Shown piece by piece: positions 9,267 through 54,314 of a stretch of DNA of 64,000 nucleotides; positions within the stretch are counted from its first letter, which is position 1; every line of letters begins with the position of its first letter. The position numbers were made by a program, and so were the translations under genes. This stretch comes from Candidatus Micrarchaeia archaeon. GTDB lineage: Archaea > Micrarchaeota > Micrarchaeia > Anstonellales > Anstonellaceae. Location: assembly GCA_041650255.1 (NCBI GenBank), contig JBAZLL010000001.1, positions 20,667 through 84,666 of the forward strand. Direction: 5' to 3'. Under the pieces are notes generated by a model. It did not search any database. It was not told the DNA's origin and saw only the letters and a program-made list of their open reading frames with translations.

Positions 9267-9351
9267 TACTATATTTATTGGAGTCGGCAAAATAAAAGAA
9301 TTCCTCTTGTGTTCTTTGCGCCTTTTTATCTGCAAATTAAACCAACCCTTC

Positions 9352-25128: not shown

Positions 25129-25300
25129 TGCACACCCTCCAAATTTGAAAATAAATTCTGCCTGTTCAATCTGTCTGCCCCAATTAAAATAAACTTACTC
25201 TTCAAGCGCAATTTGTGGAGCAATCATTTCCTATTCTCAAATGTCTCCCCCATCAACCACTGCACATTGATTTTATAAACCTCCTCGGCGAGCACAAACC

Positions 25301-27652: not shown

Positions 27653-27697
27653 TTTGAATTAAATTCCTTTCATCAGTTATTATCGTAGGTGTGTTGC

Positions 27698-28909
27698 ATG
27701 AAATTTCAAACTCTTGATGATGTGAATGTAAAATCAAAAACCGTTTTTGTGCGCGTTGATTTGAATTGCCCGATAAAAAATGGCAAGCCGCAAGTAAGCG
27801 CGCGTGTATCTGCACATGCAAAAACCCTATTTCTGCTTTCCAAAAAGGGAGCAAAAACGGTGGTGCTTGCCCATCAGGGAAGAAAAGGCAAAGACGATTT
27901 CATCTCCCTTGCTCCTCATGCAAAAATGCTTGAAAAGGAAATAAACAAAATTTCAAAACCAAATAAAATAAAAGTTGAATTTATAGCAGATGTTTGCGGT
28001 GCTCCGGCGCAAGGGGCAATAAAAAAATTAAAAGACGGACAAATTCTTCTTCTTGAGAACACCCGCTTTTTAGACGATGAAGAGACTTTTGAAAAAGACA
28101 AAAAATCCGACCTTGTAAAAAATCTTTTTCCCCTATGCGAGGTATTTGTGCTTGACGCCTTTTCGGTTGCGCACCGTTCGCACGCATCCGTTTGCGGATT
28201 TGCAAAATGCGCCCATGTAGTCGCCGGACCGATAATGGCGGAAGAGCTCTCCGCCCTTTGCAATTTGGAAAAGCCGAAAAAACCGGCTCTCTTGGTGATT
28301 GGGGGCGCAAAGCCTTCCGACTCATTGCCCATAATGAAGCAATGGCTTGAACAGGGAAAAGCAGATTCCGTTCTTTGCGGCGGGGCAATGGCAAACTTGA
28401 TGCTTTTTGCGTCGGGCAAATCGCTTGGAAAGCCGTCCGAAGACTTTTTGCAAAAGAACGAGGCGTTGCAAAATTTCGAGCAGACAAAGAAGCTTTATGC
28501 GAAATACAAATCAAAAATAATTATTCCGTCCGATGTGATTGTTGACAATTTGGGGAAAGCAAAAGTGGTTGATTCGGCTTTTCTACCTTCTGATTTCGCA
28601 ATTTTGGATATCGGGCCAGAAACCGCCCGCTCATACGCAAAACTAATCTCATGCGCAGGCTCAATAGTGCTAAACGGACCAATGGGCGTTTATGAAAAGG
28701 TGCAATTCTCATCCGGCACAAAAACCGTTTTAGGTGCAGTTGCCAAATCAGGCGCATTTTCTCTTCTGGGCGGCGGGCACACTCTCTCTGCATTGGAAGA
28801 ATTCAATATTCCCTACTCAAAATTTGGCTATGTATCACTTTCTGGCAAGGCACTTATTGAATTTCTAAGCGGGGATGAGTTGCCCGGCGTGAAAATGCTG
28901 GAACATTAA
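27698..28909 (+). CDS. pgk: Phosphoglycerate kinase
   Basis: Substrate-binding N-terminus VFVRVDLNCPI and VLAHQGRKGK, with a C-terminal nucleotide-binding domain. The ATG at 27698 (MKFQTLDD) is preferred. Confidence 0.85.
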   Translation: MKFQTLDDVNVKSKTVFVRVDLNCPIKNGKPQVSARVSAHAKTLFLLSKKGAKTVVLAHQGRKGKDDFISLAPHAKMLEKEINKISKPNKIKVEFIADVCGAPAQGAIKKLKDGQILLLENTRFLDDEETFEKDKKSDLVKNLFPLCEVFVLDAFSVAHRSHASVCGFAKCAHVVAGPIMAEELSALCNLEKPKKPALLVIGGAKPSDSLPIMKQWLEQGKADSVLCGGAMANLMLFASGKSLGKPSEDFLQKNEALQNFEQTKKLYAKYKSKIIIPSDVIVDNLGKAKVVDSAFLPSDFAILDIGPETARSYAKLISCAGSIVLNGPMGVYEKVQFSSGTKTVLGAVAKSGAFSLLGGGHTLSALEEFNIPYSKFGYVSLSGKALIEFLSGDELPGVKMLEH

Positions 28910-28974
28910 GCATTCTTGTATTTTTTTGTTTTTTTGCAAAGAAATCGCGCCCACCTCTGCAAAATATCAGACTG

Positions 28975-28982
28975 TTTATAAA
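28975..28982 (+). promoter_or_regulatory. TATA box (TTTATAAA) for the giant-protein operon
   Basis: Located 35 nt upstream of the ATG at 29017, consistent with a very short 5' UTR. Confidence 0.4.
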
Positions 28983-29016
28983 TGTTGCATGGCTTTTTGC
29001 ATTCGGTGGATAGCGC

Positions 29017-32000
29017 ATGTTCGTGTACCAGCTAAGGGTTTATCCTTCTGCGAAAGAAGGCTATGGAAAGCAATCATCTTCTGAAACGGATGCCAGTTTG
29101 CAAAACAGTTCTTTGCAATACAACAACTATTTGCTCATAATGCAAGGTTATGGCAATTATTACAATCGTAAAAATATCATTGAAAACAAAGGCGAGCTTC
29201 TGCCGCTTTCAAGCAACATAAAAAACAAACTTACTAGTCAAGGCGAATCATTATCCACAAAGTTGACTGATGAGGACGGTATTTCTGCATTGTCATCTGT
29301 TAATGTAACTTATGCCCGTGATTCTGCGCCCGGGTCCCAAGACATCGGCTATAGTGCGCAACCAAGTGTAATCGGCATCCGCTCAATAGCAAAAAAATTC
29401 AAGAGCGGTGCGCAAGAGTCTGAAAGCCTTTCAGGCTCTGCTCAAATGATGCTCAACATGTATGCTTCAATCGTGGAGCTTTCTCTTGAGGGCAATGTGC
29501 AGGAAACAAATAAGGAAGCAATAATGGAATTCGTGCGTGAAAACCTAAAAATCGCATTTCTGACAATTCAAGAGGATATAAAAAACAATAAAAAAAGCAC
29601 ACTTGATGCAAAAGCAATATTTGGAAACCCCTCTTTTGTAACCGGCGATTTGGCAAAAGACGGCTATGTCTGGTCTGCGCTCAAAACGTTTGGGGTTGAA
29701 GACAAAAACATAAACAATATCAGAACTTCATTTATTAACATCGTAAGCGGAAATCCAAAATCCGGGTTCGGGGATTTTATCACAACTCTTTTTCCAACAG
29801 CAACAATGGATGCGCTTCCCCAATCTTCCCTAAGCACGAAAGCGGGAATAAGCCAGTCTGCGATAGATAATTACACCAAGCTCTCCTACACGCAAAACAT
29901 TTCCCTTCTCAACAGCCTCAAAAACGACTTCGTGCGCCGGGTTTTTGGCGAAAGCTTTGCAGAAAAAGTTTCTGCATATCTTTACTATTCATTGCAAAAG
30001 AACGAGCTTAGCGACAAGAACGCAATCAAAAAGGCCGTCGGAGAAATTGATGCGCACATCTCCCTTCTAAACGATGTTTTCGTAAACTGCATTTGGAAAA
30101 ACGAAGACAACTTTTTGAAATCCCATCCTGCCGCCGAACTTGAGAGGCAAAAATCATATTATTCAAAGGCGCTGGATGCGGCTTCGGACAGGGGAATGGC
30201 GCAAATCGGTCTGAAGACTAGTGTGCAAGGCAGAATAAACGAGCTTAGGCAAATCAAGGAAGGATTGCAAAGCCGGGACTTGGCGGAAAAAAATAATGCC
30301 CTAAACGAGTTTGCTCTTTTCAAAGCAAGATATACGATCTGCGGGAAATATTGTGAAGAAGAATCTCAAGGCTCAGACAAAAAAATTCAAACCCCAGAAA
30401 ATTATGCAAAAACAGTTGCCAAGATTGATTTGGAACCCCAAGATGTTCCAGGTTATTACGCTACAACGCTTGCTCTGAATCCGCTTGGGCGCAATTTGGT
30501 TTCAATTCCAAAAGAGGGGGCAAACATAATGTCCATTGAGCTCAAGGTAGATGAAAATTCTTCAACTACCCATCTTAGCCCCGGTTCAAAAGGCGGGGTG
30601 GCAGTAACCTCGCAATCAGTTTACGAAGTAAATCTTTCCGACAAATCAATCATTACCCCAGATATGGAAATCCTCGCGGCAAAAGCGTATGATTTTCTAA
30701 AGGAAATAAATCCCGGTAAAACTATTACCTCCTCAATAGAAAATAACACTATACGTCTGGCGATTTCCGAGAAGAAAGTCTACGTTTCATTGGAAAAAGC
30801 AAATTTGCATTATAGTATGTTCTATGTTCCCGGCACTCTAAGTGGAAGCACGCCTGTGCCGGTTCCCGTATATGAAGTCGGGCTGGAGGCGAAATCAAGA
30901 TCATCAGGTCGCGAAGTCGTGAAAAATGGGAGCTATTTTGATCTTGAGCTCGGTTATGGCGTGCACGATTATGACAATTTGGCAAAAGACGAGAAAGACC
31001 CACTTTCAATTTACGGGGAAAAAAACATCCATGGGGAAAACCGGGGCAACAGAATTGAAGCCACAAAAGGTCTGAAATACGCTGATTACAAATTCAATGT
31101 AGGTGTTTCATCCGAGGAAGGTTATTTGACTTCCACCTACACCACTTCCATCGCCCCCAAAGCCGCCGGAGCCTCGTGCGCCGCAAAAGCAAAGGAATTC
31201 ATTGACTCTGGTGGAGCAATTACTACTGCAAATATTCAAAACTTTTTTGACAATCAGGCTGTTGACGATTTAATAAAAATCCATTATGGCAGAATGTACC
31301 CAAGCCTTGAAACTTGGTATCCAAGCGGCGAAACTCCCAAAGTTTATGATTCCAAAGCCATGCTTGAAAAATACGAAGGCTCTCTCTCTGCAGGAAAGGT
31401 AAAATATGACCTTTATGTGACATTCTTGCAAAAGCTTTACGAGTCTCTTCCAGCTGGGGCAGACCGAGACGTAGTTCTCAAAGTGCAAGGCACCGGCTCT
31501 GACAAAAAAATCAGCGGTCTTTTATATGACGCAATGATTGACGAGCAGGGAATTTATCTTGACCGTTTCATGCGGGACCAAGCGGGGTATCAATTTACCG
31601 TTGGCAGAGTAATGCGACTTTTGGATTCGCTTTCTCTGCGCGTATTTGAAAGCGGTGCATATGCAAAAACCCGCCAAAATCTATGGGTCGGAATTCCTGG
31701 AACCGAAATTGGGCAAAATGGCGAGCTTGAAATGAAACTTGCTTATATTCCGGCGTATGGAAGCATGAATAATGGCTGGATGCGCGAATCCTCTTTTGGA
31801 GTCTCAACTCCATTGCCGGGCGTAAGCGGCACATATCTCAACTTACAAAATTCGGAAGCTTTTGCGCTTGAATTAATGTGGTCAACATTTCTTTATGCGT
31901 CGGAAGAAACTTCTCTCAAGGGAAGAGTGAAACTTTGGGGCATGGTGTCTTTGCCAAATACAGAGATCCTTCCAAACGATGCCGGTATAGTAAAATTTGC

Positions 32001-33873
32001 GGACAATTGCAAAAACTATTGGGACGGCTTCATGTCAGGAAATCTTACTTTTGACCAAGCCCGCGCCAAACTCAAAGACGAGCTTAAGTTGCTAAGGGAG
32101 GCAATCAAAAATTCATATTCTCAGGATAAGACAACCCTTGAAGCCATCGACAATCTAATTGGAAAAGAAGGGCAAACCACTTCGGGCCTTTTGTATGAGA
32201 CTGAAGATGCCGGGCACGTTCAGACCGAGCGGACACTTCTTGCGCTTGTAAGGGGCAAGGACGAGTCCGAGCTCGGATGGATTTATGAGCATTACAACGG
32301 CGGAAAAACCGGAGCGTCTTATATAAGCGCTTCAACATTTGTGAACGAGCTTTCAGAATATTCCGGAGTGACAAGTTTTGCCAAGGCAATACCTGCCGGA
32401 AACTTTTCGCTTGAATTTGAGCTTGATGGAAAAATTTCCAAAAATATGCCGTATAACGTGACTCTCAAAACCTACCCGCTAACTCCATTTATTGTCAAGA
32501 CTTTGATGGAATCTCTTGCATCCGATAGGAATTTGTTTGGCGGCATAAGTGCAAAAGACAAAGTCAAGGGGCTTTATGAAAGATATGGCGACATGCTTGA
32601 ACCCAAATGGCCGCCGACAATTATTGATGCAAGCGTCGGATACAGTTTGCCGCTAATCAAAAATAATTTGTATGCCAATTTTGGCATCGCCGCAAATTTC
32701 AATGTTTTCTCAATAGATATGGAAGGGGCGTCAATCAATGCAGACCTGTCCACCCCCGGCTCAAATTTGAGATTTATTTATTCATTGGAAAAATCATTCT
32801 TCAAGGCAACGCCATATACTCCAATGATAGGTGCTGGATTGCAAGTATCCGTAAACGAGATCGCACACCATTTTGCAGATGTTAAGATTCCTTGGAATGC
32901 GGACATAAAAGGTGAAATTTTATACTCCCGCGATTTGCCGGAACACGACTTTTCACTGCCTCATATGGAAACTTTGGGCTGGCGCGCAATATTTAGTATG
33001 CCCGTAGTTCCCTTCGGAGAAGACAGAGCGGGTAAAAATGCGTATTTGTTCACTTCCGAGAGCATGCCCGCTTTCAAGGTGCAAATGCGCAAACTCTCTG
33101 CAAGCGAGCTTTCGGAAAATGAAATGAAGCGAATTGAAAATCTCAAGGACGGGCAAACATATGGGTTTGAGCTCGGAGGAGATTCCTTTGTCGTTAGAAG
33201 AAAAGGCGACACTCTGAATCTTTATGAGAAAAGAAAGGATTACGGCAAAAAGGCGGCTTACGGGCTTGATGATTGGAGAGTTCCAACTTCTAAACAATCC
33301 ATTAGCCAATCTTATAGTGGGGATTACAAAGACTTTTTGCTCTCCAACCTGACCTCTGATGAGCAGAAGGAAGTTGAAAGTCTCCGAGTCCCGCTTGCAA
33401 ACAATTCATATTACAACCCGCGCGCATCTGCAAGTAGTGGAAGCGAAAGCTGGCTAAATCTTGAGGAAATGGTAAACTATATGTTGGAAAAGCGCTCTCT
33501 TCTAAGCGCATTGTCTAACGAAGAGCGCGAATTTCTCAAAAACAGACAAATAAGTGGAACCTTCTGGTACTCGCATCCGCAAACCGGTGTGCAGGTTGAT
33601 GTTGGCCAAATGGTTTCATACTTGCATAATACTAAATTCAACAACAATCTTTTGTCTCTGCTTTCTCCGCAAGAGCTTGAAGGCCTCAATTCAAGACGCT
33701 CAATGGTATCCTCAAATACAAATCCCCTGTTCTATTTTGAAAAAGAGAATGGCGGGTACGAAACACTCAATTTGCGCGATGCGATATTACGAACTGTTGA
33801 AACCAATATCAAAGAGCAAAAAACAAATGCACTAATCAGGCTTGCGCAAAGCGCGCCTGAATACGGGGGCTGA
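29017..33873 (+). CDS. Giant hypothetical protein A (1618 aa), no recognisable domains
   Basis: Uninterrupted 4.86 kb ORF. No signal peptide or TM detected by eye. Its stop TGA overlaps the next start (TGATG). Confidence 0.8.
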   Translation: MFVYQLRVYPSAKEGYGKQSSSETDASLQNSSLQYNNYLLIMQGYGNYYNRKNIIENKGELLPLSSNIKNKLTSQGESLSTKLTDEDGISALSSVNVTYARDSAPGSQDIGYSAQPSVIGIRSIAKKFKSGAQESESLSGSAQMMLNMYASIVELSLEGNVQETNKEAIMEFVRENLKIAFLTIQEDIKNNKKSTLDAKAIFGNPSFVTGDLAKDGYVWSALKTFGVEDKNINNIRTSFINIVSGNPKSGFGDFITTLFPTATMDALPQSSLSTKAGISQSAIDNYTKLSYTQNISLLNSLKNDFVRRVFGESFAEKVSAYLYYSLQKNELSDKNAIKKAVGEIDAHISLLNDVFVNCIWKNEDNFLKSHPAAELERQKSYYSKALDAASDRGMAQIGLKTSVQGRINELRQIKEGLQSRDLAEKNNALNEFALFKARYTICGKYCEEESQGSDKKIQTPENYAKTVAKIDLEPQDVPGYYATTLALNPLGRNLVSIPKEGANIMSIELKVDENSSTTHLSPGSKGGVAVTSQSVYEVNLSDKSIITPDMEILAAKAYDFLKEINPGKTITSSIENNTIRLAISEKKVYVSLEKANLHYSMFYVPGTLSGSTPVPVPVYEVGLEAKSRSSGREVVKNGSYFDLELGYGVHDYDNLAKDEKDPLSIYGEKNIHGENRGNRIEATKGLKYADYKFNVGVSSEEGYLTSTYTTSIAPKAAGASCAAKAKEFIDSGGAITTANIQNFFDNQAVDDLIKIHYGRMYPSLETWYPSGETPKVYDSKAMLEKYEGSLSAGKVKYDLYVTFLQKLYESLPAGADRDVVLKVQGTGSDKKISGLLYDAMIDEQGIYLDRFMRDQAGYQFTVGRVMRLLDSLSLRVFESGAYAKTRQNLWVGIPGTEIGQNGELEMKLAYIPAYGSMNNGWMRESSFGVSTPLPGVSGTYLNLQNSEAFALELMWSTFLYASEETSLKGRVKLWGMVSLPNTEILPNDAGIVKFADNCKNYWDGFMSGNLTFDQARAKLKDELKLLREAIKNSYSQDKTTLEAIDNLIGKEGQTTSGLLYETEDAGHVQTERTLLALVRGKDESELGWIYEHYNGGKTGASYISASTFVNELSEYSGVTSFAKAIPAGNFSLEFELDGKISKNMPYNVTLKTYPLTPFIVKTLMESLASDRNLFGGISAKDKVKGLYERYGDMLEPKWPPTIIDASVGYSLPLIKNNLYANFGIAANFNVFSIDMEGASINADLSTPGSNLRFIYSLEKSFFKATPYTPMIGAGLQVSVNEIAHHFADVKIPWNADIKGEILYSRDLPEHDFSLPHMETLGWRAIFSMPVVPFGEDRAGKNAYLFTSESMPAFKVQMRKLSASELSENEMKRIENLKDGQTYGFELGGDSFVVRRKGDTLNLYEKRKDYGKKAAYGLDDWRVPTSKQSISQSYSGDYKDFLLSNLTSDEQKEVESLRVPLANNSYYNPRASASSGSESWLNLEEMVNYMLEKRSLLSALSNEEREFLKNRQISGTFWYSHPQTGVQVDVGQMVSYLHNTKFNNNLLSLLSPQELEGLNSRRSMVSSNTNPLFYFEKENGGYETLNLRDAILRTVETNIKEQKTNALIRLAQSAPEYGG

Positions 33874-36800
33874 TGGGCATGTTTGTTTTTCAATCATTCG
33901 CACCTTTAATCGTTGGCGCAGCTGTAACCTCCGAGGTTCAAAACTATTGGTGCAAATATATTTCTGAAGAATTGAAAAACAATTTGAAAAATAATCCAAA
34001 GGCATCTGTGCGTGAAATAGAATCAATGCTGGGCAGCCTTGAATTGAACGGTTTTAAAACATGGTTGCAAAAAAATACTCGCAACGCATCCCAACTCGGA
34101 CGGGATGCCGCAAGCAATTACAACTCGCTTGAGAAAATAAAAAATTCAATAATCTCGTTGGGGGAGTATTCTGCAATCGGCGGAGTGCAAAAAAGTCCGG
34201 ACGCGCAGGTGCAAAAGCTGTGCAATCTTTTGCAGTCCTGGCAAAATGTGCGCAAAAGCGGTGGGAGCACAGAAAAACTTGAGGAAGATCTTGCAGATGT
34301 TATTTCATCCAGGGACATGGACAAGCCAATCTCGGCACTTCTTCTTTCCGGATTTTTCGCAGGTTCCTCACTCGGGGCTAAAATAGATGATAAATATTTC
34401 GAAGCCGCAGCAGTTTATTTTTCGTCTGGTTTACCAAACCGCAAAAACAGCGATGCGTTCTTTGATTTCTTGTCATCCTGTCTTTATCATAATCAAACCG
34501 TAAGTGCAAATCTTAAGCTCTCTTTCTTTGAGCCCGCAGATTTGGCTCCAATGCGTGATGCAAAAGATTTCATCAATGTCCAATCCTGCTTGAGCCCATG
34601 GGCAAACGTGGCGTCGTTTTTAGAGCAGATGTCAAGAGGAAGGGCAAGATGGTTTATCTCCGATGCCTTTGACATTATAGCAGAAGACAAGACAAATTTT
34701 CAAAAAGGCTTGCGCGACGGGCTTGTAAAAGCAAAAGTAAATGGCGCAAAAGAGATGGCAAATTTCAACTATGATGACAAATTCCTTGAAGCAGGTCTTG
34801 TACCAAACTTGGATTACACCTCAAATTCGGGCGGAGTCTTAACCAGATTACTTTCAAATAAGAAATTTCAGGACTTTGTATTAAACGCAAAAGACCCTTC
34901 TGATCCGTCAATTAACTATTTTCAAGATGTTTTTTCTCTCGGATGGAATAAGGACAAATTACTGAACCTGCCGATAACCGATGAGCGCGCAATAAAATTT
35001 CGTTCATTGATGAACACTCTAAATGCAAAACAAAATCTTGATTTGACCTACGACCGGTTTGCAAACGCGTTTTTGAGCCAGATCGAGCGCTCAGATAAAA
35101 ACGATATGGGAGCGCATACTGGCCCGGTGATATTCTCCCAATCCCAGCTTGATGCATGGCACAAGTATTTCTTTGAGTTTGACCAAATATTTTTGCCGAA
35201 AAATTCCAACAGCCTTGTGAATTTGTGCAACAACATCATACGCGAAGAATTCATATCTGATCAAAAAACAATAGACGAGCTAAAGGCATATGTCTCAAAT
35301 CCGTCCGCGGGGATGAACGAGGAAACAAAACGTCAGGTTCGCGCTGCCATGATAAAAGGAATGGCAAGATTTGACTTATACTTTAGTGCATCCTCCGAAT
35401 TTTTTGAGGGAGAATCAGAAATCTCAAGAAAAGTAAAACAAATATGTCAGCAGGCACAGCCCTTGCAATATATTCACAATTACACTCGCGACATTACATA
35501 TGAAACAAATTCAAAATACAGTGAATTCATAAGCATAGATTACGGAGTGCATTCGCTTGAGAACTGCGATCCGAAAAAAGACAAATTCGTAATCTCAAGC
35601 GCAAACCGATTCTTCACAAGGATGTTTGACTTTTTCATAAACGAATACCGCGAGAAAAAAGGCGTGGTATTGCCACCAGAAGAGGCGTACAAAATCTCCA
35701 AATATGTAAACGACCCTCAAGTCGGCTATTATGCGCGAACCCTAAAAGTATTTTTCGGAAACGGGCTTGGCAATAATGGAAAATGGGACGAGAGCGCCCG
35801 CGTACAGGTGAGCTACGTTCGCGGAGACACGGAAACTCCCTCTTCAAGCATGACATTTAGTGAAGCATCCGGATATGTGCCATTCTTCAGGGTAAAGGAA
35901 GGCAGGCTAAAAGAAACGACTGATGAACTGCGCAAAGAGCGGTTCAGCGGCGGGGAAGACAAACAGGAAAACGAGGAAAATCTTGCCACAAAAGTTCTCA
36001 AATCTTATCGCAGAATCGCAATAGTAAGCTCCGGTGCAACCCGTTACATCCTCGAGCTTGAGGACCCCAATACCAAAACCTATTTTGACAAGACCAAATA
36101 CCATATGAATTTTGATTATGGAATGCAGGGCGGGTTCATCAATCCGGAAACCGGCAACTTTTACAAGTCCGAAATAAGCTACATCATATCCGGAACAGGA
36201 AAACCACTGACAAAAACTCCGCCCCTTCTCTCAAAAGTGAATTTTGCATTCGGGGAAATATTTTGCAACGATTATGGCAATACTGTTCCTGTGGGAGAAT
36301 ACAATACTGGTGAGATATCTTTTGAGATAACCCTTCTCAAAGATGGAATCGAAAAATTCAGCCCAAGGAAATTTACTTCCATGATTTCGGATCCGGTCAC
36401 ATCAATTGCCTATGATGCAGGTGGGGTTGCGTCATATTCTTCAAAGTACGATATCTCGGTAATAAAAGAATGGGTCACTCGCGCAACTCTTCTTGGAAAC
36501 GGTTGTGCAAGCGACAATAAGGGCTGGACAATTGCAGGACACGGAATGCCTGACTGGCCCCCATACCTTATAACTGCAAACATAAGCCGCGAAAATCCGA
36601 TACAATTTTTCAATCCCGGAATAAATGTCAGCTTCCATCGCGAAGAGCACTATTCTATGGAGCTTGTGCACACCACAAATCCAAAAGTTGAGGCAAAAGT
36701 CCTGGGCTTTGAAGGTCCGGGCGGGCTGCGGGAACGTCATACCTTCAATCCACAACCAAAAAAATTATTCCTTAATCCAGACGGTAAGGTTCGTGAGGAA

Positions 36801-37769
36801 GGCTCCCTCAAAGACGGCTCAAAAATAATATTCAATGCCTCAGAGGGTCTTGTTTATGCAACCGCTTCTGGCGTTTCGCCTCCGGAATCGTTGTTTGATA
36901 AAATAGTTGAAGACGAAACAGGTTCGCCCTCAAACAAGATTCCAATTCCAAACGTGCCGTTTTTCGCATGCGTCTCATCCTATGAAAAAGTGGGCGACCG
37001 GCTCTTTTTCTATATTGGAGGAAGTGCCGAAAACCGTCAAAGCCTACAATTGCGCTCTGCGGACAAAAAATACAAAGACGGATTTAGATATTTTGATTCC
37101 GTTCCGACCTCTTCGGGCGAACCAACCCGCGAGTTTGAGCTATATGATTCAAAATCAAAAACCGTAGTCGGGTTCGCAAAAGTTGTATATCAAAAGGTTC
37201 CAGGCGAGAGCAAATACCCTTTTGACGAAGAATCCTCAAGTTATTCAATAGATCCATCTGCTGCCGTAAAAATACCTTCACTCCGATCTTTTGTCAAAAC
37301 ATTAAAAACCGATGCAGATAGCTTTGCCCACTTCCCGCAGAACTTTGAAGTCAGAAGTGATGGAAAGAGCATTCACAAATTTAGCATAACTCTTGATACA
37401 AACAGCGAGGAATACAAAGAGTTCGAAGCAAGTCTCATGGGCAAGTCCGAAGGAGCTACATCTGCGCCCGCAGACGCAAGCGACCCAAGGTTCGGCTCAT
37501 GGATATTGCGGGTAAGCACAAGGTCGGAACCAATCATTTTGCACTTTGAAGAAAATTTCCAACGCGATGGGGTTTTGCACTTTTTCCTAATAGATTCGGA
37601 AGGCAAAAAACAATACGAAGGCACTTATAATGAATCAACAAAGGAAACAAAGATTATGAACGGACCGCACAATGACGGATTATTAAAAAAGCAATTTTCG
37701 TACAATTCAATATTGGGCGAAACTGGCTCATTTGACTGGCGCAGTATGGTGCCTGTCAGGTCTGCATAG
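33873..37769 (+). CDS. Giant hypothetical protein B (1298 aa)
   Basis: ATGA overlap with gene A. N-terminal hydrophobic stretch MFVFQSFAPLIVGAAVTS (possible signal or anchor). No catalytic motif. Confidence 0.8.
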   Translation: MGMFVFQSFAPLIVGAAVTSEVQNYWCKYISEELKNNLKNNPKASVREIESMLGSLELNGFKTWLQKNTRNASQLGRDAASNYNSLEKIKNSIISLGEYSAIGGVQKSPDAQVQKLCNLLQSWQNVRKSGGSTEKLEEDLADVISSRDMDKPISALLLSGFFAGSSLGAKIDDKYFEAAAVYFSSGLPNRKNSDAFFDFLSSCLYHNQTVSANLKLSFFEPADLAPMRDAKDFINVQSCLSPWANVASFLEQMSRGRARWFISDAFDIIAEDKTNFQKGLRDGLVKAKVNGAKEMANFNYDDKFLEAGLVPNLDYTSNSGGVLTRLLSNKKFQDFVLNAKDPSDPSINYFQDVFSLGWNKDKLLNLPITDERAIKFRSLMNTLNAKQNLDLTYDRFANAFLSQIERSDKNDMGAHTGPVIFSQSQLDAWHKYFFEFDQIFLPKNSNSLVNLCNNIIREEFISDQKTIDELKAYVSNPSAGMNEETKRQVRAAMIKGMARFDLYFSASSEFFEGESEISRKVKQICQQAQPLQYIHNYTRDITYETNSKYSEFISIDYGVHSLENCDPKKDKFVISSANRFFTRMFDFFINEYREKKGVVLPPEEAYKISKYVNDPQVGYYARTLKVFFGNGLGNNGKWDESARVQVSYVRGDTETPSSSMTFSEASGYVPFFRVKEGRLKETTDELRKERFSGGEDKQENEENLATKVLKSYRRIAIVSSGATRYILELEDPNTKTYFDKTKYHMNFDYGMQGGFINPETGNFYKSEISYIISGTGKPLTKTPPLLSKVNFAFGEIFCNDYGNTVPVGEYNTGEISFEITLLKDGIEKFSPRKFTSMISDPVTSIAYDAGGVASYSSKYDISVIKEWVTRATLLGNGCASDNKGWTIAGHGMPDWPPYLITANISRENPIQFFNPGINVSFHREEHYSMELVHTTNPKVEAKVLGFEGPGGLRERHTFNPQPKKLFLNPDGKVREEGSLKDGSKIIFNASEGLVYATASGVSPPESLFDKIVEDETGSPSNKIPIPNVPFFACVSSYEKVGDRLFFYIGGSAENRQSLQLRSADKKYKDGFRYFDSVPTSSGEPTREFELYDSKSKTVVGFAKVVYQKVPGESKYPFDEESSSYSIDPSAAVKIPSLRSFVKTLKTDADSFAHFPQNFEVRSDGKSIHKFSITLDTNSEEYKEFEASLMGKSEGATSAPADASDPRFGSWILRVSTRSEPIILHFEENFQRDGVLHFFLIDSEGKKQYEGTYNESTKETKIMNGPHNDGLLKKQFSYNSILGETGSFDWRSMVPVRSA

Positions 37770-37777
37770 GTGAATAT

Positions 37778-39763
37778 ATGATTTTTCAACTAAGAGCCAT
37801 GAATTTTTCAGATTTCGCTTATGCTCAGCAGGATGGCCAACCAAAAAGTCGCAGCTCAAGTGAAAGCAAAAACGAGTCTGCCGCACTGTCATTGATTTAC
37901 AAAAATGTAGTGGATATAGTCAAACGCCCGGCTACGGACGAATATGGTGAGGCTACAGAGCAAAACTTCTTCAGATTAAAATTGCCTCCAACCGGTCAGA
38001 ACGCTGCGGTTTATTGGAAGGAGAAAATATCTCAGGCTCTATTGACCGCAGGCGATGATGCAAAAACCTGGAACACAATAAGAAAATTTTTGGAAGATGC
38101 ATTCAATTCTTTCGGATCCGATATGCTTATTGCAGTTTCTCAAAATGGCAATGAGACTTCCGCGGGACTTAATAGACTAAATTTATTTAGCGCAATCAAT
38201 GCTGTGGAGTTTGATATCCAGCGTTCAGTTGGCGGACTAAACCGCCCAGCAGATTTCGGGGTGTTTTCAGTAAGTAAAGGTAGTGCTTCTGCCGAGTGGG
38301 CGCAGGCAGGCAACGGAACCTGGCAAATGGGCGGAGCAACTTCGGTTCAAGTCGAAATTTCCCAACCGTCAAAGAGCACTCGTCCAATAGACATAACTGC
38401 GGCTGAGAAGAAACCTGTAGTGTTTGCTGATGACCTCACAAGTGTCAACTCCACCACCGAAACAAAAAAAACGCTTGCATCCACCTCTGCTTTTTCAGAG
38501 CTTGAAGAGCAGGCGGCAAGGCTTTCCGCATTTGCAAAAAAGCCATCAGACATGCCGCAAAAAGGGGCATCCCTCGAAATCGCATTCACAATTCTTGATT
38601 CATTTTTTGATTATGATTTAAGGCAGATAAAAAGCAAATTCGCGAAAGAGTCCGGTATGAGCAAAGCCGAGTTGACGGAATGTTGCAGAAAGATAATCAA
38701 CTATGCATTGGAGGCGACGGCAAATTCCGCAGAGGACAGGCTTGACCTTCTTCAATCACTGGCGTTATTTTGCGACGACGCATCTTCATCTTACAAAACC
38801 CTTGTGGATGGGCAATGGGTAAAAACTTCCGACAAGTTCAGCAAGGAAATTCGCGCCGGGGCGCAGTATGCCGTTTCATATGTGCTTTTTGATTATGGCA
38901 AATACAGTGCGATAGAAGCTTATCACGAGCTTGCAAAAAAAGGTGCAGACCCGACAGTGCTTAGTGAGATGGAAACTGTTTTCCCAGGGGTTTCAAAAAT
39001 GGACCCTTCGGACGCAACCAAATGGCTTGAAAACCGCAGGCTACAGCTTCCATTTTTAATCAACTTACTCTCCAATGCAGAGTCCCTTGAGGGTATGCCA
39101 AAAGCCGCAGATGCGGCAGTAAACGGGCTTAGCGGAATAACATGGTCTAAAGAGCGCCGAGATGGAATTCTTGCCGCCGACGCAATCTCATCTCTTGATG
39201 TTTCCAATTTGCACAAATCTGCAATCGCCAGCTCAGTGCTAAGTCGAGCTCGCAACAACTATCTTCCGATAGAAACCCGTGCCGCCTGTCTCTACTATGG
39301 AGCGTACAATTCAAACATCGCCGGCGCCTTTGACGGGGCTATGAAAGAGGATGCGCGCAATATCAAAAAGGTCGCCGAATCCGATTTTGACTTTATGCTC
39401 GCAATGCTTGTTTCTGCTTCAGGAGTAGAGCGGTCCACTTACGGAATCGACCAGACAATCAACCCCATCAACGAGGAAGTTTTTGGTTTGTATTTAAATA
39501 AAATCAAATCCTATACGTCCGCTCATAAATCCGACTCCTCATTTAACGAGCCGGTAAAAATCGGTGGGAAGCCGAAATATATCATTGAGCAGACCAGCCA
39601 GAACGGGCAAGTAGAGCAAGTCCCAGTGAGCGCCTGCTTGAGTGCAATGCAACTTATCAAGACATTAAATGACAATTTCACCCAACGTATAAGGGACAGC
39701 CCCATATGGGATAAGATGAATGAAACTTATCTTGAGCTTGAAAAAGTGCACCTGAATCATTAG
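37778..39763 (+). CDS. Hypothetical protein C (661 aa)
   Basis: An AGGTGA Shine-Dalgarno overlaps the gene B TAG stop, 4 nt before the ATG. No domain recognised. Confidence 0.75.
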   Translation: MIFQLRAMNFSDFAYAQQDGQPKSRSSSESKNESAALSLIYKNVVDIVKRPATDEYGEATEQNFFRLKLPPTGQNAAVYWKEKISQALLTAGDDAKTWNTIRKFLEDAFNSFGSDMLIAVSQNGNETSAGLNRLNLFSAINAVEFDIQRSVGGLNRPADFGVFSVSKGSASAEWAQAGNGTWQMGGATSVQVEISQPSKSTRPIDITAAEKKPVVFADDLTSVNSTTETKKTLASTSAFSELEEQAARLSAFAKKPSDMPQKGASLEIAFTILDSFFDYDLRQIKSKFAKESGMSKAELTECCRKIINYALEATANSAEDRLDLLQSLALFCDDASSSYKTLVDGQWVKTSDKFSKEIRAGAQYAVSYVLFDYGKYSAIEAYHELAKKGADPTVLSEMETVFPGVSKMDPSDATKWLENRRLQLPFLINLLSNAESLEGMPKAADAAVNGLSGITWSKERRDGILAADAISSLDVSNLHKSAIASSVLSRARNNYLPIETRAACLYYGAYNSNIAGAFDGAMKEDARNIKKVAESDFDFMLAMLVSASGVERSTYGIDQTINPINEEVFGLYLNKIKSYTSAHKSDSSFNEPVKIGGKPKYIIEQTSQNGQVEQVPVSACLSAMQLIKTLNDNFTQRIRDSPIWDKMNETYLELEKVHLNH

Positions 39764-39856
39764 CTGATTTTTTTAGCATTTTCTTCTCTGCCAATACGTT
39801 TTGCTCAAGGGCATATATTTAAAGTATAACTTGGTTTGTTCTCTTGGGTGTGATAA

Positions 39857-41698
39857 ATGCCGGCGTACATGTTTGCGGATCTTCAAAGAAATAAATCAGA
39901 TAAAGAGAGCCTCATTTCAGATTATGTGCAAATTCTTAACAACAACTCATTGAACTTGGACGAGCGGCTTGCCGCTCTCAAGCCTCTGTGCTCGGATTTA
40001 AAAAAATCAACCAATGCTTCAGAGATAAATTCCGGTCTTTTTGGGCTTTTGGTTTTTTATAATGAAAATAAAAATTCCATAAGTAATGTGGATGCAAACA
40101 GGATATCCGACGCAATCAAGAACTCAAAGTCTTTCGGATTAATGTCATATATAGACAAGCAGGACATCTCACAAAAACAAAAGGGAGTTCTAAAAGATTT
40201 GGCGCAAGAGTTGCTCACCTCAACACCACAAACCGCAATCCCTGGAATAGTACCAAAATCCAACCCACCATTAACCTCTGGTGGTTTGAGCAAACGTGGG
40301 GCGAAAGACTCCGAGAAACGTACAAATGTCAATGCTAAAGATTTCCACGACAGGCCGTTTTTCACTCCTGATTTCACGACTTTGAAAATAAATGATTTCA
40401 AGTACGACCCGGCGGTAATAAAGTTCGGGGACAATTTGGCGCTTGATGTTTTTTATGGCAGTCCCGGATACGAAACTCTCTCAAAAAAACTCGGCTTTGA
40501 CCTGTCTTCAAAAGAGGGAGAGCGCAAGGCAATCAACTATTTCGCATCAAAATTTGAGTTGTTAAAGCAATACTATGATTTTTATAAAAAAGGAAAAGCG
40601 CTTGGATTCAGCAATGTGGAAGATATCAATCCAACCGAAGTTAAGGAAACCTGTGCAACAATATTGCAAATAGCAAGAACCGGCTCATTCACTTCTGATG
40701 AGGTAAATATGCTAAAATCCAGCGATATTGTAGGTTTCATAAAATCATATTCCTCCCGAAGCGATGACGATTTCTCGGCATGGCTTAGAACTGAAGGAAA
40801 GCTGAATCTTGCTCTTGAGAGCAAAGTGCTTATCGGTTCAGTAACGGCTGTAATTCCTACTAAAAAATGGGGCACCGATTTTATTTTCGGCTCGCGAGTG
40901 GATGTTTTTTCAAAAGAAACAAAAGACGTTTTTTCACTTTCCGACGAATCTCTCACTGATGTTTATAGCAATATATCTATGGATTCCCCAAAAAGTTTTG
41001 TCCCGCACGGAATAGTCGGCGTAATGGTTAGCAGTAAGGGAGCGCTGGAGGCTCTTTTCGGCTTTGGTTCCGATGCCGAATACAGCCTGCGCTGGGGCAC
41101 TCGTTCAAAATATTCCGGCAAGCCGATAGGAGACATAAAATTCATGGGAGGTTATCTTGATTACAATGTGGAAGCTTCAATGAAAACCGAGGGCGCGGAA
41201 GATAAAATAACTGTAAACTTTCTAAGCGGTCAAAAATCAATGTCAAATGGAAGTTCCACCAATTTCGGAATAACTGCAGGTGCCGACTACGATGCGGAGC
41301 TAGGAAAAATAAAACTAGGTGGAGTGCAATTTGCAGACTGTACTGGGGTTCTTTTCAACATGAATCTCGGGTACTCAAACCAGAGCGGAATGAGTGCGGG
41401 TTCACGCTTGGGTCTGGTATTATTCCCCACGCGCGCTCTCGGCTTGCAGGCATCTGTGGGTGCCCAACTTAGCGACTTCAAGCTAAAGGAAATAAACGGG
41501 AATCTAGGAGCGACATTCAGCTTGAACGATGGCGCATCATTTTCACTGAATTTGGGTGCAGTACAAAGGCTCTTGGAATATTCCGCCTCCAAAAATGAAT
41601 TTATCAATGCAAATAATCCAAAGCCGGAATTTAGGGGAGATGTCCGAATTTCAATACCTGCAAACCAAATACCTCTTCTAAAAGAAATTGTTGAATAG
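39857..41698 (+). CDS. Hypothetical protein D (613 aa) with a Gly/Ser-rich beta-strand-like C-terminal region
   Basis: The C-terminal ~220 aa shows alternating hydrophobic/polar patterns (GATFSLNDGASFSLNLGAVQRLL; LGYSNQSGMSAGSRLGLVLF). Confidence 0.75.
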   Translation: MPAYMFADLQRNKSDKESLISDYVQILNNNSLNLDERLAALKPLCSDLKKSTNASEINSGLFGLLVFYNENKNSISNVDANRISDAIKNSKSFGLMSYIDKQDISQKQKGVLKDLAQELLTSTPQTAIPGIVPKSNPPLTSGGLSKRGAKDSEKRTNVNAKDFHDRPFFTPDFTTLKINDFKYDPAVIKFGDNLALDVFYGSPGYETLSKKLGFDLSSKEGERKAINYFASKFELLKQYYDFYKKGKALGFSNVEDINPTEVKETCATILQIARTGSFTSDEVNMLKSSDIVGFIKSYSSRSDDDFSAWLRTEGKLNLALESKVLIGSVTAVIPTKKWGTDFIFGSRVDVFSKETKDVFSLSDESLTDVYSNISMDSPKSFVPHGIVGVMVSSKGALEALFGFGSDAEYSLRWGTRSKYSGKPIGDIKFMGGYLDYNVEASMKTEGAEDKITVNFLSGQKSMSNGSSTNFGITAGADYDAELGKIKLGGVQFADCTGVLFNMNLGYSNQSGMSAGSRLGLVLFPTRALGLQASVGAQLSDFKLKEINGNLGATFSLNDGASFSLNLGAVQRLLEYSASKNEFINANNPKPEFRGDVRISIPANQIPLLKEIVE

Positions 41699-41706
41699 GT
41701 GAATGA

Positions 41707-43893
41707 ATGACGAAACTCAAATTATCCCTGTTTGTATTGCTTGCATTTTTTGCGCCAATAATATACTCATCCCAAACTTTGGACTATCCTTCACAGCTCA
41801 ATTTTTTCAGCGCAGGGCACGGGTTTGAAACTGACGGTTCCTTTACATTGGTTTCAAGATTTTCAACCAGCTCATCCGGAGCTCCATCTCAAATTTTCAT
41901 TCCAAGAGAAACCGCTATAGACCGGTCCGACTTGCCAGTTGAAATCTATATGTGCCCCGGCAATCTTATGCCAAGCACGACTCCATCCGGAACTTTTTAC
42001 AAAACATCCTTTAGCGGCGATTCGTTTTACATCCTTCCAAATAAGCGCACAAACTTCGTATGTTTCAAGTCCGCCGATTATGACATTTGCATAAAAGAGT
42101 CGTATCCATGGCCCGCCGACCAGCTCGGAAAGGGCACGCAGATCCAATGGTCCACTTCTCCCTCTCCGACAATTCTTGACAAGATGAAGGCGGATTCAAA
42201 TTTCAAGGCAACTGTAGACCCTCAAGAGGCTCTGTACAATGAATTGTGTACAAACGCAAACGTGAACGTTGATTATTATCCCGCACTGGCCGAAGAGTTT
42301 TATCCAGACAACGAAGGCAAAGCAGGAGTCGCATGCTCCGGCTCGGAAAAAGTTTATGTGAAATCAGGCTCATCAACCACCCCGCTTGTCCGTGCGGACG
42401 GGAAATCTTCTCCCGCGCCAATAAATTCAAATTCTTGCAATCCACCATCTTCGCAAAATTGGCAGAGCTATTCTTTTGCAGACAATAAACAGGACACCAT
42501 TACTCTTGGAAGCATAACATACAAAGGGCAAAACTACGAAGTGCTCTCCGAATTGGACACTGGCACATTGGTATGCCATGGGGCAATACAAATCCTTCCC
42601 TACAAAGGGGACAAATATGATGCCAAATATCTGTATCTAAGTGGAGGGGCATCTCCTACTTCGCAATCGGCATCAAAATATGTCGTTCATGTTGTGGAGC
42701 CCGGCACCTGCAATCTCCCAGTAATCTCATTTTCTCCAAACCCGCTTACTGGAGTCTCTCCAAACGGACAGTACACAATAAATGTGGACATAAAAAATCC
42801 CTACCTTCTCTTTGACATGGACATAACCGGAGTTAGGATGTCGCCTTACTCTCCAGTGAATGGCTGGAGCGCAAAAATTGATTCCCTTCCAATAAAAATA
42901 GAATCGGACAAAACCGTTAGCGTGCCCGTGGTTCTTACCTCTCCGGCGCAACTCACTTCCCTTGATGATGTGTGCTTTAACATCTCATACACTTCATCGG
43001 TTCCATTCTGTGACGGAAAGAAATGCACAAACTCTTCCCTTGTTTGCGTAAAGCTTGACCTGACCCCAAGCTGTAAAATATTTTCCCTCACTGTCCCTCC
43101 AATAAAAACCGGAGACAGCACGATTCTAAACACCACTTGCTATGAAGATGGATATGTTTTTCCCTGCGAGCCGATTGAATGGGTTGCGTCCGGATTTGAA
43201 GATAAGAGTGGCAATCAAAACATAAGCTTTTTTGCACTCGGGGCGCAGGATTACATTCCCCAAAATGTCCCTGCACTTGATTCAAAATTTATTATAGTTC
43301 CCCCTTACACGACTCCGCCATACACTTATCCGGCACAACCGGCAGAGCGAAAATTCTTTACTGCAAACCCGGCACCATGGGGGATGCTTTGGACATATGA
43401 TTGGCACGACAAGCCATCAATTACTCCGGAAGCTCCGAACGGCAAAATAAGCGCGAGCGGAACAAACTCGCAGAAAAAAAGTTTCACATGCGAATTTGAC
43501 ATAAACGCCGCCAAAGCGGATTTGCCAGACTTTACACCCGATGTAATAATCACGCCTTCCGGAGATCCTTTGCGCGGAACACAGCAATATTTGATAACTT
43601 ATTCGGCATTTAACAAAGGCCTTGGTGCATCACCGAGCGGCAGTGATGTTGAAAACGTTTTAAGGGATTCAAAGAATGCAATCGCGAGCAAAACAGTATT
43701 TAGCGAATCTGTAGCTCCATTGAAAAAGAGCAAAGCAGGCACATACACTTTCCAGTGCCCGTTCCCCGGGTTCTTCAAATTCTTCATAAGCGTTGACGAC
43801 AAGGGCGTAATTGATGAAGAAAAAGAGGACAACAATAAGGGCACAATAGATTTGCGCTGTGACGGACTATATTATTGCCCGGACTTGGTGTAA
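41707..43893 (+). CDS. Secreted Cys-rich protein E (728 aa) with a CARDB-like C-terminal domain
   Basis: Signal peptide MTKLKLSLFVLLAFFAPIIYS. The C-terminus (FISVDDKGVIDEEKEDNNKGTIDL) resembles the CARDB signature (VDPDN.V.E.NE.NN). An AGGTGA Shine-Dalgarno overlaps the gene D TAG stop. Confidence 0.75.
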   Translation: MTKLKLSLFVLLAFFAPIIYSSQTLDYPSQLNFFSAGHGFETDGSFTLVSRFSTSSSGAPSQIFIPRETAIDRSDLPVEIYMCPGNLMPSTTPSGTFYKTSFSGDSFYILPNKRTNFVCFKSADYDICIKESYPWPADQLGKGTQIQWSTSPSPTILDKMKADSNFKATVDPQEALYNELCTNANVNVDYYPALAEEFYPDNEGKAGVACSGSEKVYVKSGSSTTPLVRADGKSSPAPINSNSCNPPSSQNWQSYSFADNKQDTITLGSITYKGQNYEVLSELDTGTLVCHGAIQILPYKGDKYDAKYLYLSGGASPTSQSASKYVVHVVEPGTCNLPVISFSPNPLTGVSPNGQYTINVDIKNPYLLFDMDITGVRMSPYSPVNGWSAKIDSLPIKIESDKTVSVPVVLTSPAQLTSLDDVCFNISYTSSVPFCDGKKCTNSSLVCVKLDLTPSCKIFSLTVPPIKTGDSTILNTTCYEDGYVFPCEPIEWVASGFEDKSGNQNISFFALGAQDYIPQNVPALDSKFIIVPPYTTPPYTYPAQPAERKFFTANPAPWGMLWTYDWHDKPSITPEAPNGKISASGTNSQKKSFTCEFDINAAKADLPDFTPDVIITPSGDPLRGTQQYLITYSAFNKGLGASPSGSDVENVLRDSKNAIASKTVFSESVAPLKKSKAGTYTFQCPFPGFFKFFISVDDKGVIDEEKEDNNKGTIDLRCDGLYYCPDLV

Positions 43894-43920
43894 ATTTTTT
43901 CCTGCAATTTTTGGATTAGG

Positions 43921-43928
43921 TTTATATT
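43921..43928 (+). promoter_or_regulatory. TATA box (TTTATATT) 22 nt upstream of the ATG at 43950 (leaderless start)
   Basis: Spacing from TATA centre to ATG is ~26 nt. Confidence 0.4.
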
Positions 43929-43949
43929 GTGCAATTGCATTCCACTCTC

Positions 43950-44621
43950 ATGTCAAAGCTTCCTAATCTCAAGGATTTGGATCTGTCTTTTCTAAAAAAA
44001 GGGCAAACGCCTGCTCAGAAAGCGGCAGCAGAGCCTGATAGCGAGCTTGAAGAGCTTAAGAAAAAAATGCAGGTTCAGAAAATGCAGCTTGAGCTCATGT
44101 ACATGATAATTGAGCGCTACAAAAAATTCATAGAAGATGGCGAATCCAAATCAATATCCGACCTTCGCACATTGGTGCGCCCGATGGATTCAGTAATTAC
44201 CGAAGTGAAAATCGGCATTGAAGACCAGTTCCATCCATATGTATATGATTCAAACTTTCTTCTTGCGACACAGCGCGCAATGGATTTGGTATTCTCATGG
44301 AAAAAGGTAAAATTGCCTGTAAGCTTTTGGATGGGCTTTGAAGACATGGTTCATCTAAAGGCGGCGGACGATATTGACCGCGCGATATTTCTCTGTTCGC
44401 TTTTTCGCGCCCTCGGCTCCGATTCCGCAAAAGTGGTTATAGGCAAAGACCGCGCGGCATGGACATTTTTCACATTCGGGGAAAAAGACTATGTTGTAAA
44501 TATCGGAGACCGTACAATGAGTGCATATCCAAATGGCGGGGACGGAATAAAGCTGTTTATGAGAACTGCGCTTTATTCGTTTAATGACAAGGACTATTCC
44601 GATTTGAGCGAAGGACAATAA
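43950..44621 (+). CDS. Transglutaminase-like (papain-fold) domain protein; Cys conserved, His position replaced by Ala
   Basis: AIFLCSLFRALGSDSAKVVIG matches the TGase-core G.C..FA.LF.AL.RALGIPARVV.G region. The downstream RAAWTFFTF...VVNIGD aligns to HAW.E.....W..FD but has Ala where His is expected. Confidence 0.45.
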   Translation: MSKLPNLKDLDLSFLKKGQTPAQKAAAEPDSELEELKKKMQVQKMQLELMYMIIERYKKFIEDGESKSISDLRTLVRPMDSVITEVKIGIEDQFHPYVYDSNFLLATQRAMDLVFSWKKVKLPVSFWMGFEDMVHLKAADDIDRAIFLCSLFRALGSDSAKVVIGKDRAAWTFFTFGEKDYVVNIGDRTMSAYPNGGDGIKLFMRTALYSFNDKDYSDLSEGQ

Positions 44622-54229: not shown

Positions 54230-54314
54230 CATCTTTTTCATTTCTATGGACATTTATATACAGAAACCACGTGTATACCTTTAGTACAAATTCAATTCGT
54301 GGTGTGTGAGAAAT

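Follow-up and report, generated by a model that had tools for sequence, protein, structure and literature searches.

A block of five large, co-directional genes, here designated A to E, occupies positions 29017-43893 of a 64,000-nucleotide stretch of DNA (the window) from a metagenome-assembled genome (MAG) of a Candidatus Micrarchaeia archaeon. Together the genes encode 4918 aa in 14,877 bp, and their products have been deposited as hypothetical proteins WC492_00270 to WC492_00290. Sequence comparison with related genomes indicates that the block is a vertically inherited, lineage-restricted chromosomal operon, and that A to E are apparently non-enzymatic structural proteins belonging to five unrelated, undescribed and non-paralogous families. 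A short hydrophobic tag is shared by the N-termini of A, B, C, the orthologues of D and the product of an upstream gene (U783), and protein E is almost certainly extracellular, as judged by its sequence features. Our preferred reading, put forward tentatively, is that the tag-bearing subunits and the Sec-exported, Cys-rich E form one envelope or extracellular assembly. An earlier note on this DNA had proposed a surface or host-interaction apparatus of a small-genome DPANN archaeon; the host is indeed represented by a Micrarchaeia MAG, and the interpretation as a whole is partly supported. Large clusters of ORFans are frequent among DPANN genomes. The points that distinguish this one are its conserved operon architecture and a shared, testable N-terminal tag; its five novel families take up about 15 kb, a noticeable share of a likely small genome, and have been kept intact over divergent lineages.

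The five open reading frames (ORFs) lie on the + strand as gene A (29017-33873, 1618 aa), gene B (33873-37769, 1298 aa when read from the ATG that overlaps the stop codon of A), gene C (37778-39763, 661 aa), gene D (39857-41698, 613 aa) and gene E (41707-43893, 728 aa), separated in that order by -1, 8, 93 and 8 nt. The A/B junction, GGGGGCTGATGGGCATG, is a TGATG overlap, and the Shine-Dalgarno (SD) site of gene B is encoded within the Gly-Gly C-terminus of A. At the B/C (TAGGTGAATATATG) and D/E (TAGGTGAATGAATG) junctions the stop codon TAG is fused to GGTGA, the next ATG following 8 nt on. Strand, lengths, packing and junctions all agree exactly with the earlier note, as does the TATA box that it assigned to gene A (TTTATAAA, 28975-28982, + strand), which lies 34 nt 5' of the ATG and is followed by a GGTGG SD site at about 29004-29008. 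Two T7 runs at about 28920-28935, 5' of this box, terminate the gene for phosphoglycerate kinase (PGK), and T-runs after the stop codon of E (TAAATTTTTTCCTGCAATTTTTGG, 43894-43928, + strand) mark the end of the transcription unit. The C/D intergenic region (39764-39856, + strand) holds a T7 run, then a TATA-like ATATATTTAAAG and then a GGGTGTGA SD site, and from this arrangement may contain, only in this lineage, a terminator and a promoter internal to the block. The TATA-like element, also seen in the earlier note, is present here but is not conserved in a second lineage, where the corresponding gap (L008) of 7-46 nt has an SD site only. A 24-nt inverted repeat with 88% complementarity (39752-39775 and 39999-40022) places one arm over the stop codon of C and the T-run and the other about 140 nt inside gene D; it could be due to chance or could form a local RNA structure around the C/D boundary. 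GC content is flat over the block region. The ORFs are real rather than chance products because they are 600-1600 codons long and have significant orthologues (E-values from 7e-14 to 5e-174), and the block is not an assembly artefact because at least three contigs that were assembled independently carry an identical A protein.

In the window the gene order is Pus10, prepilin peptidase, PolB, a 205-aa ORF, GAPDH (on the minus strand), U783, PGK, A to E and d230, the last being the gene that always follows E. The second lineage (L003, L008 and L009) has the complete order A-B-C-D-E-d230. Its locus begins with Pus10, prepilin peptidase, PolB, DUF7121, RelA/SpoT and PGK (the last four on the minus strand), two small ORFs and GAPDH, and continues with A' (1519 aa), B' (1379 aa), C' (648 aa), D' (691 aa), E' (719 aa) and d230'. 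A third lineage has D-E on a 3.5-kb contig and, on a sibling contig, the tail of E, d230, a bPH_2 gene and a GHMP kinase gene on the minus strand, as in the window. The D orthologue of this third lineage, P0013, was recovered by an exhaustive HMMER search with D (E-value 4.6e-7), and an E homologue lies 9 nt downstream of it (39% identity, E-value 7e-99). A search with E found the orthologue P0014 on a 29-kb contig, from which the locus of the second lineage was read. The macro-synteny of Pus10, prepilin peptidase, PolB and DUF7121, then the block and then d230 is common to both the window and the second lineage. GAPDH and PGK adjoin the upstream side of the block in both, with differing strand and order, so that the patch 5' of the block has been rearranged between lineages and A to E are intact.

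Conservation extends to the junctions, the second lineage having kept the A/B TGATG overlap together with the SD site inside the Gly-rich C-terminus of A, and D/E translational coupling being conserved in all three lineages. Conserved order and coupled junctions indicate a functional unit rather than a set of unrelated genes, in line with what the earlier note had argued from co-linearity and coupling in the window. The note had also named homology to a characterised complex, an assembly artefact and lack of synteny in relatives as findings that would speak against it; none of these was encountered, and identical copies and a conserved order were found.

At the protein level, identity between the window and the second lineage is 30% over 1365 aa for A and A' (E-value 5e-174), 26% over 1386 aa for B and B' (E-value 8e-101, aligned from residue 3 of B), 29% for C and C' (E-value 8e-49), 23% for D and D' (E-value 7e-14) and 35% for E and E' (E-value 3e-130), with E orthologues overall at 35-39%. 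The neighbouring proteins are more alike: GAPDH is 84%, PGK 63% and d230 65% identical between the same two lineages (55-65% among all d230 orthologues), and in the comparison of the window with the third lineage the values are 58% for bPH_2 and 42% for GHMP kinase. With A to E only 23-39% identical between lineages and their neighbours 42-84%, the block is by this measure diverging much faster than its surroundings.

Beyond these lineages, a pattern scan of 185,579 GTDB species representatives, which included a profile of E, gave no further copy of the block, and a synteny scan of the GTDB species representatives based on PGK gave nothing, its patterns being too specific. A metagenome scan with a d230 profile returned one short contig only. 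A word-indexed search missed A' and B', and a phmmer search with D missed D', the true orthologues being only 23-30% identical. Since orthologues thus stand at the detection limit, a wider distribution is possible, and the ORFan status of the block is partly a limit of sensitivity. Even if the block were mere lineage-specific filler, it would still show orthologues lying far below the sensitivity of standard homology searches.

The strongest evidence for a common destination of the block's products, and one that the earlier note did not contain, is the N-terminal tag. Its form is M-hydrophobic-hydrophobic-[F/Y]-Q with a polar linker behind it, and it is found as MFVYQL in A, (MG)MFVFQS in B, MIFQL in C and MLVFQG in U783, as (MIC)MFVFQS in A', MFIFQV in B' and (M)MFVFQI in D', and as MVFVFQL in P0013; it is degenerate in D (MPAYMFADLQ) and in C' (MAGFVEL). 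The regular expression M[FLIVM][FLIV]?[FY]Q has six matches in the six frames of the 64 kb; four coincide with the beginnings of U783, A, B and C, and two fall within ORFs of only 35-37 codons. A relaxed pattern combined with a minimum of 80 codons (>=80) gave no further instance in about 80 kb of this genome, and the expectation of the motif after an initiator Met is 1.2e-3. These figures speak against a chance resemblance. The codons of the tag vary between copies (TTC/TTT, GTG/GTT/GTA/ATA, CAG/CAA), which indicates that it is conserved at the protein level and is not the result of gene conversion or an mRNA feature. In the second lineage a TATA box (TTTTTAAATA) lies 33 nt before the second ATG of A', the one that begins MFVFQ, as compared with 34 nt for A in the window, and in B' the overlapping ATG is the tag's own Met. 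Because the spacing matches and the B' overlap uses the tag Met, the tag can be placed at the true N-terminus.

The tag sits at residue 1 and is followed in A, A', B', C, D', P0013 and U783 by a polar linker, a run of 15-25 poorly conserved residues rich in Q, K, S and E. In a structure model of D, residues 1-18 are of low confidence and are followed by a helical domain. By analogy, tag and linker are arranged like a targeting or docking peptide that is attached to a protein end by a flexible tether. A literature search for the motif string found no papers. The tag was considered and rejected as a class III (pilin) signal, since it has neither a [KR]-[GA] cleavage motif nor a hydrophobic helix of about 20 residues. 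A role as a Q-substrate for transglutaminase, or as a protease site, with d230 as the enzyme was set aside as the leading idea, since d230 lacks a His downstream of its Cys, is served by its own promoter and resembles cytoplasmic proteins in composition.

Protein E carries a Sec-type signal peptide at about aa 1-22, present in all three lineages, and 19 Cys residues, 17 of which are invariant in comparison with its orthologue. Its conserved Cys-rich N-terminal domain contains the motifs YMCPGN, IQW, NANVNxDYYP and YPDNxxKAG; no match to the N-terminal 330 residues was found in Pfam or among PDB-sequence profiles. The middle domains are beta-rich, and a CARDB domain (PF07705) is predicted at the C-terminus at about aa 610-711 (43534-43839). 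In E itself this match is sub-threshold (16.3 bits against a cutoff of 22.7), and in the full-length orthologue P0014 it exceeds the cutoff with 29.9 bits at the equivalent position, 599-703, so that on sequence grounds E belongs to CARDB at the family level with respect to its C-terminal ~100 aa only. The signal peptide, abundant Cys and CARDB-like end that the earlier note had described in E are thereby borne out. Since it has a Sec-type signal, is Cys-rich and ends in CARDB, E is almost certainly extracellular.

Proteins A to D are of another kind. A bears the tag MFVYQ at codons 1-5 (29017-29031) followed by the polar linker, is without signal peptide or transmembrane (TM) segment, and ends in three to four degenerate repeats of about 50 aa (LLSxL[ST]xxExxxLxxR ... 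MVxYL; residues about 1380-1618, 33150-33870) that are partly kept in A' (L008, about 9300-10000). The true start of B is probably the second ATG, at 33879, which gives a protein of 1296 aa beginning MFVFQS, because B' aligns from there and begins MFIFQ. The uncharged hydrophobic N-terminus of B remarked on earlier is real in composition, covering residues 1-19 and giving the only 19-residue Kyte-Doolittle window above 1.6 in A to D, but it is not conserved in B'. The C-terminus of B shows the motif VP[VI]RxA-stop (37740-37769; L008 14110-14140), as SMVPVRSA in B and GFVPIRLA in B'. C is Ala-rich. D begins with a helical, TPR-like bundle and, as the earlier note recorded for its end, is Gly/Ser-rich and beta-prone in its C-terminal half; its conserved core reads MLKSSD[IL]xGF[IVL]xSYxxR. 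This core (FT[SD]xExxMLKSSD..GF..SY.SRSD) gives a weak hhalign alignment with one of the A repeats, with an E-value of 0.027 and a probability of 1.8%.

Paralogy among A to E was sought by BLASTP (E-values all >0.2), by Smith-Waterman alignment with shuffles (z <3) and by hhalign (not significant), and none was found; a WPP[TY][IL]I resemblance between A and B seen by eye gained no support from the Smith-Waterman and hhalign comparisons. Walker A, HExxH and lipobox motifs are absent from A to E, the first two in agreement with the earlier reading, and no YD/RHS, Ig or other known repeats were found in A to D. The combined S+T+N+G+Q content of U783 and A to E is 31-34%, compared with 18-28% in the 17 housekeeping proteins of the window. 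Enrichment of glycosylation sequons was tried as a surface test and set aside: the density is about twice that of housekeeping proteins and is explained by composition (z about 0).

The claim that the five proteins are ORFans has held against all libraries tried, save for the C-terminal CARDB of E. No credible match to A to D or U783 was found in Pfam, NCBIfam (a faint LysM in U783 only), PHROGs or PADLOC, a single 12.6-bit PADLOC match in C' being noise. Neither single sequences nor family profiles of A to E gave anything against PDB sequences at E-values up to 5, no match at relaxed Pfam thresholds recurred between orthologues, and a word-indexed homology search returned only A and B themselves. 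AlphaFold2 (AF2) models were built from two-sequence alignments, D with P0013 and E with P0014. The model of D has a mean predicted local distance difference test (pLDDT) score of 41.6, with only residues 20-120, the helical bundle, at about 80, and that of E is meaningless at 35.2. A Foldseek search of the PDB with the D model gave at best a generic TPR-like match that is not significant (E-value 0.37). The locus lies outside every known family and system tested, the fold-level comparison having failed technically.

How might such an operon work? The block has its own TATA promoter for transcription, and its translation is coupled through the TGATG overlap and the GGTGA-fused stop codons. The tag would serve as a shared peptide for docking or targeting, directing A to D and the upstream ORFan to one destination, where the tagged subunits and the Sec-exported, disulfide-rich E, as an adhesin-like component, would build one envelope or extracellular structure for cell-cell or host contact. 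The envelope location is favoured because coupling of D to E is seen in every lineage, the composition of E is shared by the whole set and the block evolves fast; the signal peptide, 17 invariant Cys and CARDB domain of E and the faint LysM match of U783 lean the same way. DPANN archaea rely on physical host contact. The surface apparatus proposed in the earlier note is supported as regards the location of E; for A to D an extracellular location, like physical assembly, the role of the tag and any part in host interaction, is inferred.

Several results weigh against an envelope assembly. A to D are without Sec or Tat signal, lipobox, TM segment, C-terminal sorting signal or recognisable adhesion domain, and we know of no export route in archaea for signal-less proteins of this kind. 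Pfam scans of the window yielded no receptor, transporter or ATPase as a candidate partner of the tag, which is itself degenerate in D and in C'. The LysM evidence in U783 is faint and not seen by Pfam, and the second lineage has no counterpart of U783 at the corresponding place. The sequon density of U783 and A to E does not exceed the expectation from composition, and the AF2 models are unusable (pLDDT as given above), so that they lend no support at the level of folds.

The alternative that survives best, although we consider it fairly unlikely, is an intracellular mega-assembly, such as a cage, scaffold or cytoskeleton-like structure, built by A to D with or without U783, in which the tag would be an encapsulation or assembly peptide and E a separate secreted protein that shares the operon. 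It would account directly for the lack of export signals and TM segments in A to D, and the one confidently modelled part of D is a helical, TPR-like interaction scaffold. The tag-and-linker architecture also has a parallel: in microcompartment and encapsulin targeting, several co-encoded proteins carry a short terminal peptide and a flexible linker. This likeness is a functional analogy only, without homology, and differs in that those peptides form an amphipathic helix or a GSL-type motif, whereas the tag is a five-residue, beta-prone hydrophobic peptide ending in Gln on carriers of 600-1600 aa, unlike microcompartment or encapsulin cargo. A Pfam scan of window ORFs of at least 150 aa found no BMC-H/BMC-P or encapsulin shell gene. 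Further against an intracellular structure stand the D/E translational coupling kept in three lineages, the fast divergence, and a composition rich in S, T, N, G and Q as in secreted E and unlike that of cytoplasmic proteins. In favour of such a structure, cage-like bodies of >100 nm have been seen in a cultivated Micrarchaeon (PMC11329633); these are reported from distant Micrarchaeota, however, whereas the pattern scan of 185,579 species representatives did not find the block.

An improbable possibility is that there is no common assembly at all, the five genes encoding independent, fast-evolving proteins specific to the lineage that are adjacent by descent and carry a generic motif related to translation initiation efficiency, N-terminal stability or acetylation. 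The five families are mutually unrelated, as would then be expected, and the flanking synteny is shared as well, so that the order may be partly inherited rather than selected. The upstream patch, however, has been rearranged in the strand and order of GAPDH and PGK with A to E left intact, and the overlap and SD-in-stop junctions are conserved. A generic motif is also difficult to reconcile with its absence from all other genes surveyed in about 80 kb, strongly expressed housekeeping genes among them, and with its retention as amino acids encoded by varied codons.

It is similarly doubtful that A to D are very divergent members of known families, for instance S-layer, adhesin or toxin-complex proteins, lying below the sensitivity of the searches. 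True orthologues are already at the detection limit, as the missed A', B' and D' demonstrate, and the AF2 models are too poor for fold comparison; even so, family profiles found nothing among PDB sequences at the E-value limit of 5, relaxed Pfam searches gave nothing recurrent between orthologues, NCBIfam S-layer models were unmatched, and YD/RHS, Ig and other repeats were not found. A large ORFan block with a fast evolutionary rate might suggest a defence island, or a structural module left by a cryptic integrated virus or mobile element. Such an origin is highly improbable, given that PHROGs, PADLOC, a tblastn search with A and B in 50,697 phage records and an IMG/VR scan with the E profile gave no relatives, that integrase, att-like direct repeats, tandem arrays and a compositional shift were not found in the window, and that divergent lineages have the block at one and the same place in the chromosome, flanked by core genes.

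Among known systems, the nearest in kind to an envelope assembly of A to E are the SPEARE-type proteins of Nanohaloarchaeota (SPEARE, SVXNc_0300 and BNXNv_0298), each of them one polypeptide of 5,000-9,400 aa. They combine a Sec signal, arrays of Ig/FN3 domains and a TM anchor with an ATPase domain of the VirB4/TraG-like type, and the adjacent gene encodes a second ATPase (PMC10266531). The likeness lies in very large, lineage-variable DPANN proteins with a proposed role in host contact, encoded in organism-specific regions of otherwise collinear genomes. In the present case, by contrast, there are five separate proteins, of which only E has a Sec signal; no Pfam Ig/FN3 domain was found in A to D or their orthologues, A to D also lack the C-terminal TM segment, the block has no Walker A motif, and no AAA/VirB4 Pfam match occurs in it or its neighbours. 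The Micrarchaeota S-layer protein SLP_Mh has a signal/TM N-terminus and TIGR01564/TIGR01567 domains, and homologues are present in 38 of 49 Micrarchaeota genomes (bioRxiv 10.1101/2021.04.28.441871). It resembles the block's products in being large, acidic and Ser/Thr-rich, in its surface role and in coming from the phylum-level group of this archaeon, but A to E match no NCBIfam model, those for S-layer domains included, and are known from three lineages only. Extracellular CARDB proteins (PF07705) of archaea and bacteria are like E in their signal peptide and CARDB end, the domain covering about 100 of its 728 residues.

In donor-strand or beta-augmentation systems, such as chaperone-usher pili, archaeal threads and cannulae, subunits are small, mutually homologous and Sec-exported. 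By analogy the tag, as a short beta-prone strand, could dock into a partner, whereas its carriers are unrelated giants without signal peptides. To our knowledge, almost no surface or internal structures of DPANN archaea have assigned genes. Cryo-electron tomography of a cultivated Micrarchaeon has revealed an unassigned 21-nm envelope barrel docking host nanotubes and unassigned intracellular protein-cage-like bodies >100 nm long (PMC11329633). A bolder and unlikely proposal would be that the tag is a previously unknown archaeal sorting or assembly signal serving a Sec-independent route of Micrarchaeia for export or cargo loading, and that the operon encodes the 21-nm barrel or the >100-nm cages of that study; linking the operon to either structure is speculation. 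Should the tag turn out to be such a signal, it would represent a new archaeal targeting route and provide a handle on the machinery and on further substrates.

Two neighbours call for separate treatment. U783 (25301-27652, + strand) encodes a 783-aa, Lys/Glu-rich ORFan that bears the tag MLVFQG and has a block-like composition; PGK lies between it and the block, and it is a probable accessory member of the system. A LysM-like segment at about aa 222-285 is visible as the pattern YKVKGGDNTWKI...NIRVGDKITVV and has a faint NCBIfam match (PRK11198, E-value 0.0065, 30 residues), with none in Pfam at E-values up to 1. Weak vWA-like matches occur near aa 600-735 (Pfam E-values 0.015-0.08). The LysM-like upstream protein of the earlier note thus has a faint counterpart, but the immediate neighbour of the block is PGK.

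Downstream, d230 (43929-44621, + strand; L008 20604-21248 and L005 575-1264) probably starts in reality near 43983, because LSFLKK there aligns with MSFLKK. It has its own TATA box (GGTTTATATT; also written AGGTTTATATT) 3' of the T-runs of E, conserved in the second lineage, and its composition is cytoplasm-like, as is that of other unannotated neighbours. The match to the Pfam family CEPT76_peptidase is partial (22.8 bits against a cutoff of 27.8). Cys156 is invariant and lies in an AIFLCSLFR helix, and no His is found C-terminal to it in three orthologues. The order of a Cys-His-Asp triad being absent from its sequence, d230 is not a canonical transglutaminase or peptidase; it may have an inactive transglutaminase-like fold, or may simply be a neighbour of the system. 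The transglutaminase-like gene that had been read here in the earlier note is weakened by the sub-threshold match, the missing His and the separate promoter, and the surface theme that the note saw in both flanks is weak, with PGK as the immediate neighbour and a faint LysM signal.

Elsewhere the window has the content of an ordinary archaeal chromosome, with genes for PheRS, AspRS, SRP54, a family-B DNA polymerase, Pus10 and Nre and further core genes for CTP synthase, an ABC transporter and prepilin peptidase. PGK (27689-28909, + strand) is directly upstream of A; its ORF start is probably too long, as an orthologue aligns from residue 4 (MKF...). The start of GAPDH (24123-25223, minus strand) is probably too long as well, a 334-aa orthologue aligning from residue 33. 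The prepilin (type IV leader) peptidase (19566-20459, + strand) lies about 9 kb upstream of the block and is also present in the second lineage (L009 309-1187) within the macro-synteny of Pus10, peptidase A24 and PolB; nothing points to an action of this enzyme on the tag, which is without a class III cleavage site. Among proteins without a family match, a 264-aa protein (46987-47781, + strand) has one TM segment, a 548-aa protein (47838-49484, + strand) has no TM segment and a cytoplasm-like composition, and a 381-aa protein (54306-55451, + strand) has no TM segment. A 718-aa ORFan (7197-9353, minus strand), without Pfam match or tag and unrelated to the block, has hydrophobic segments at its N-terminus and in mid-protein and is also called in an independent assembly (L007 11567-13723).

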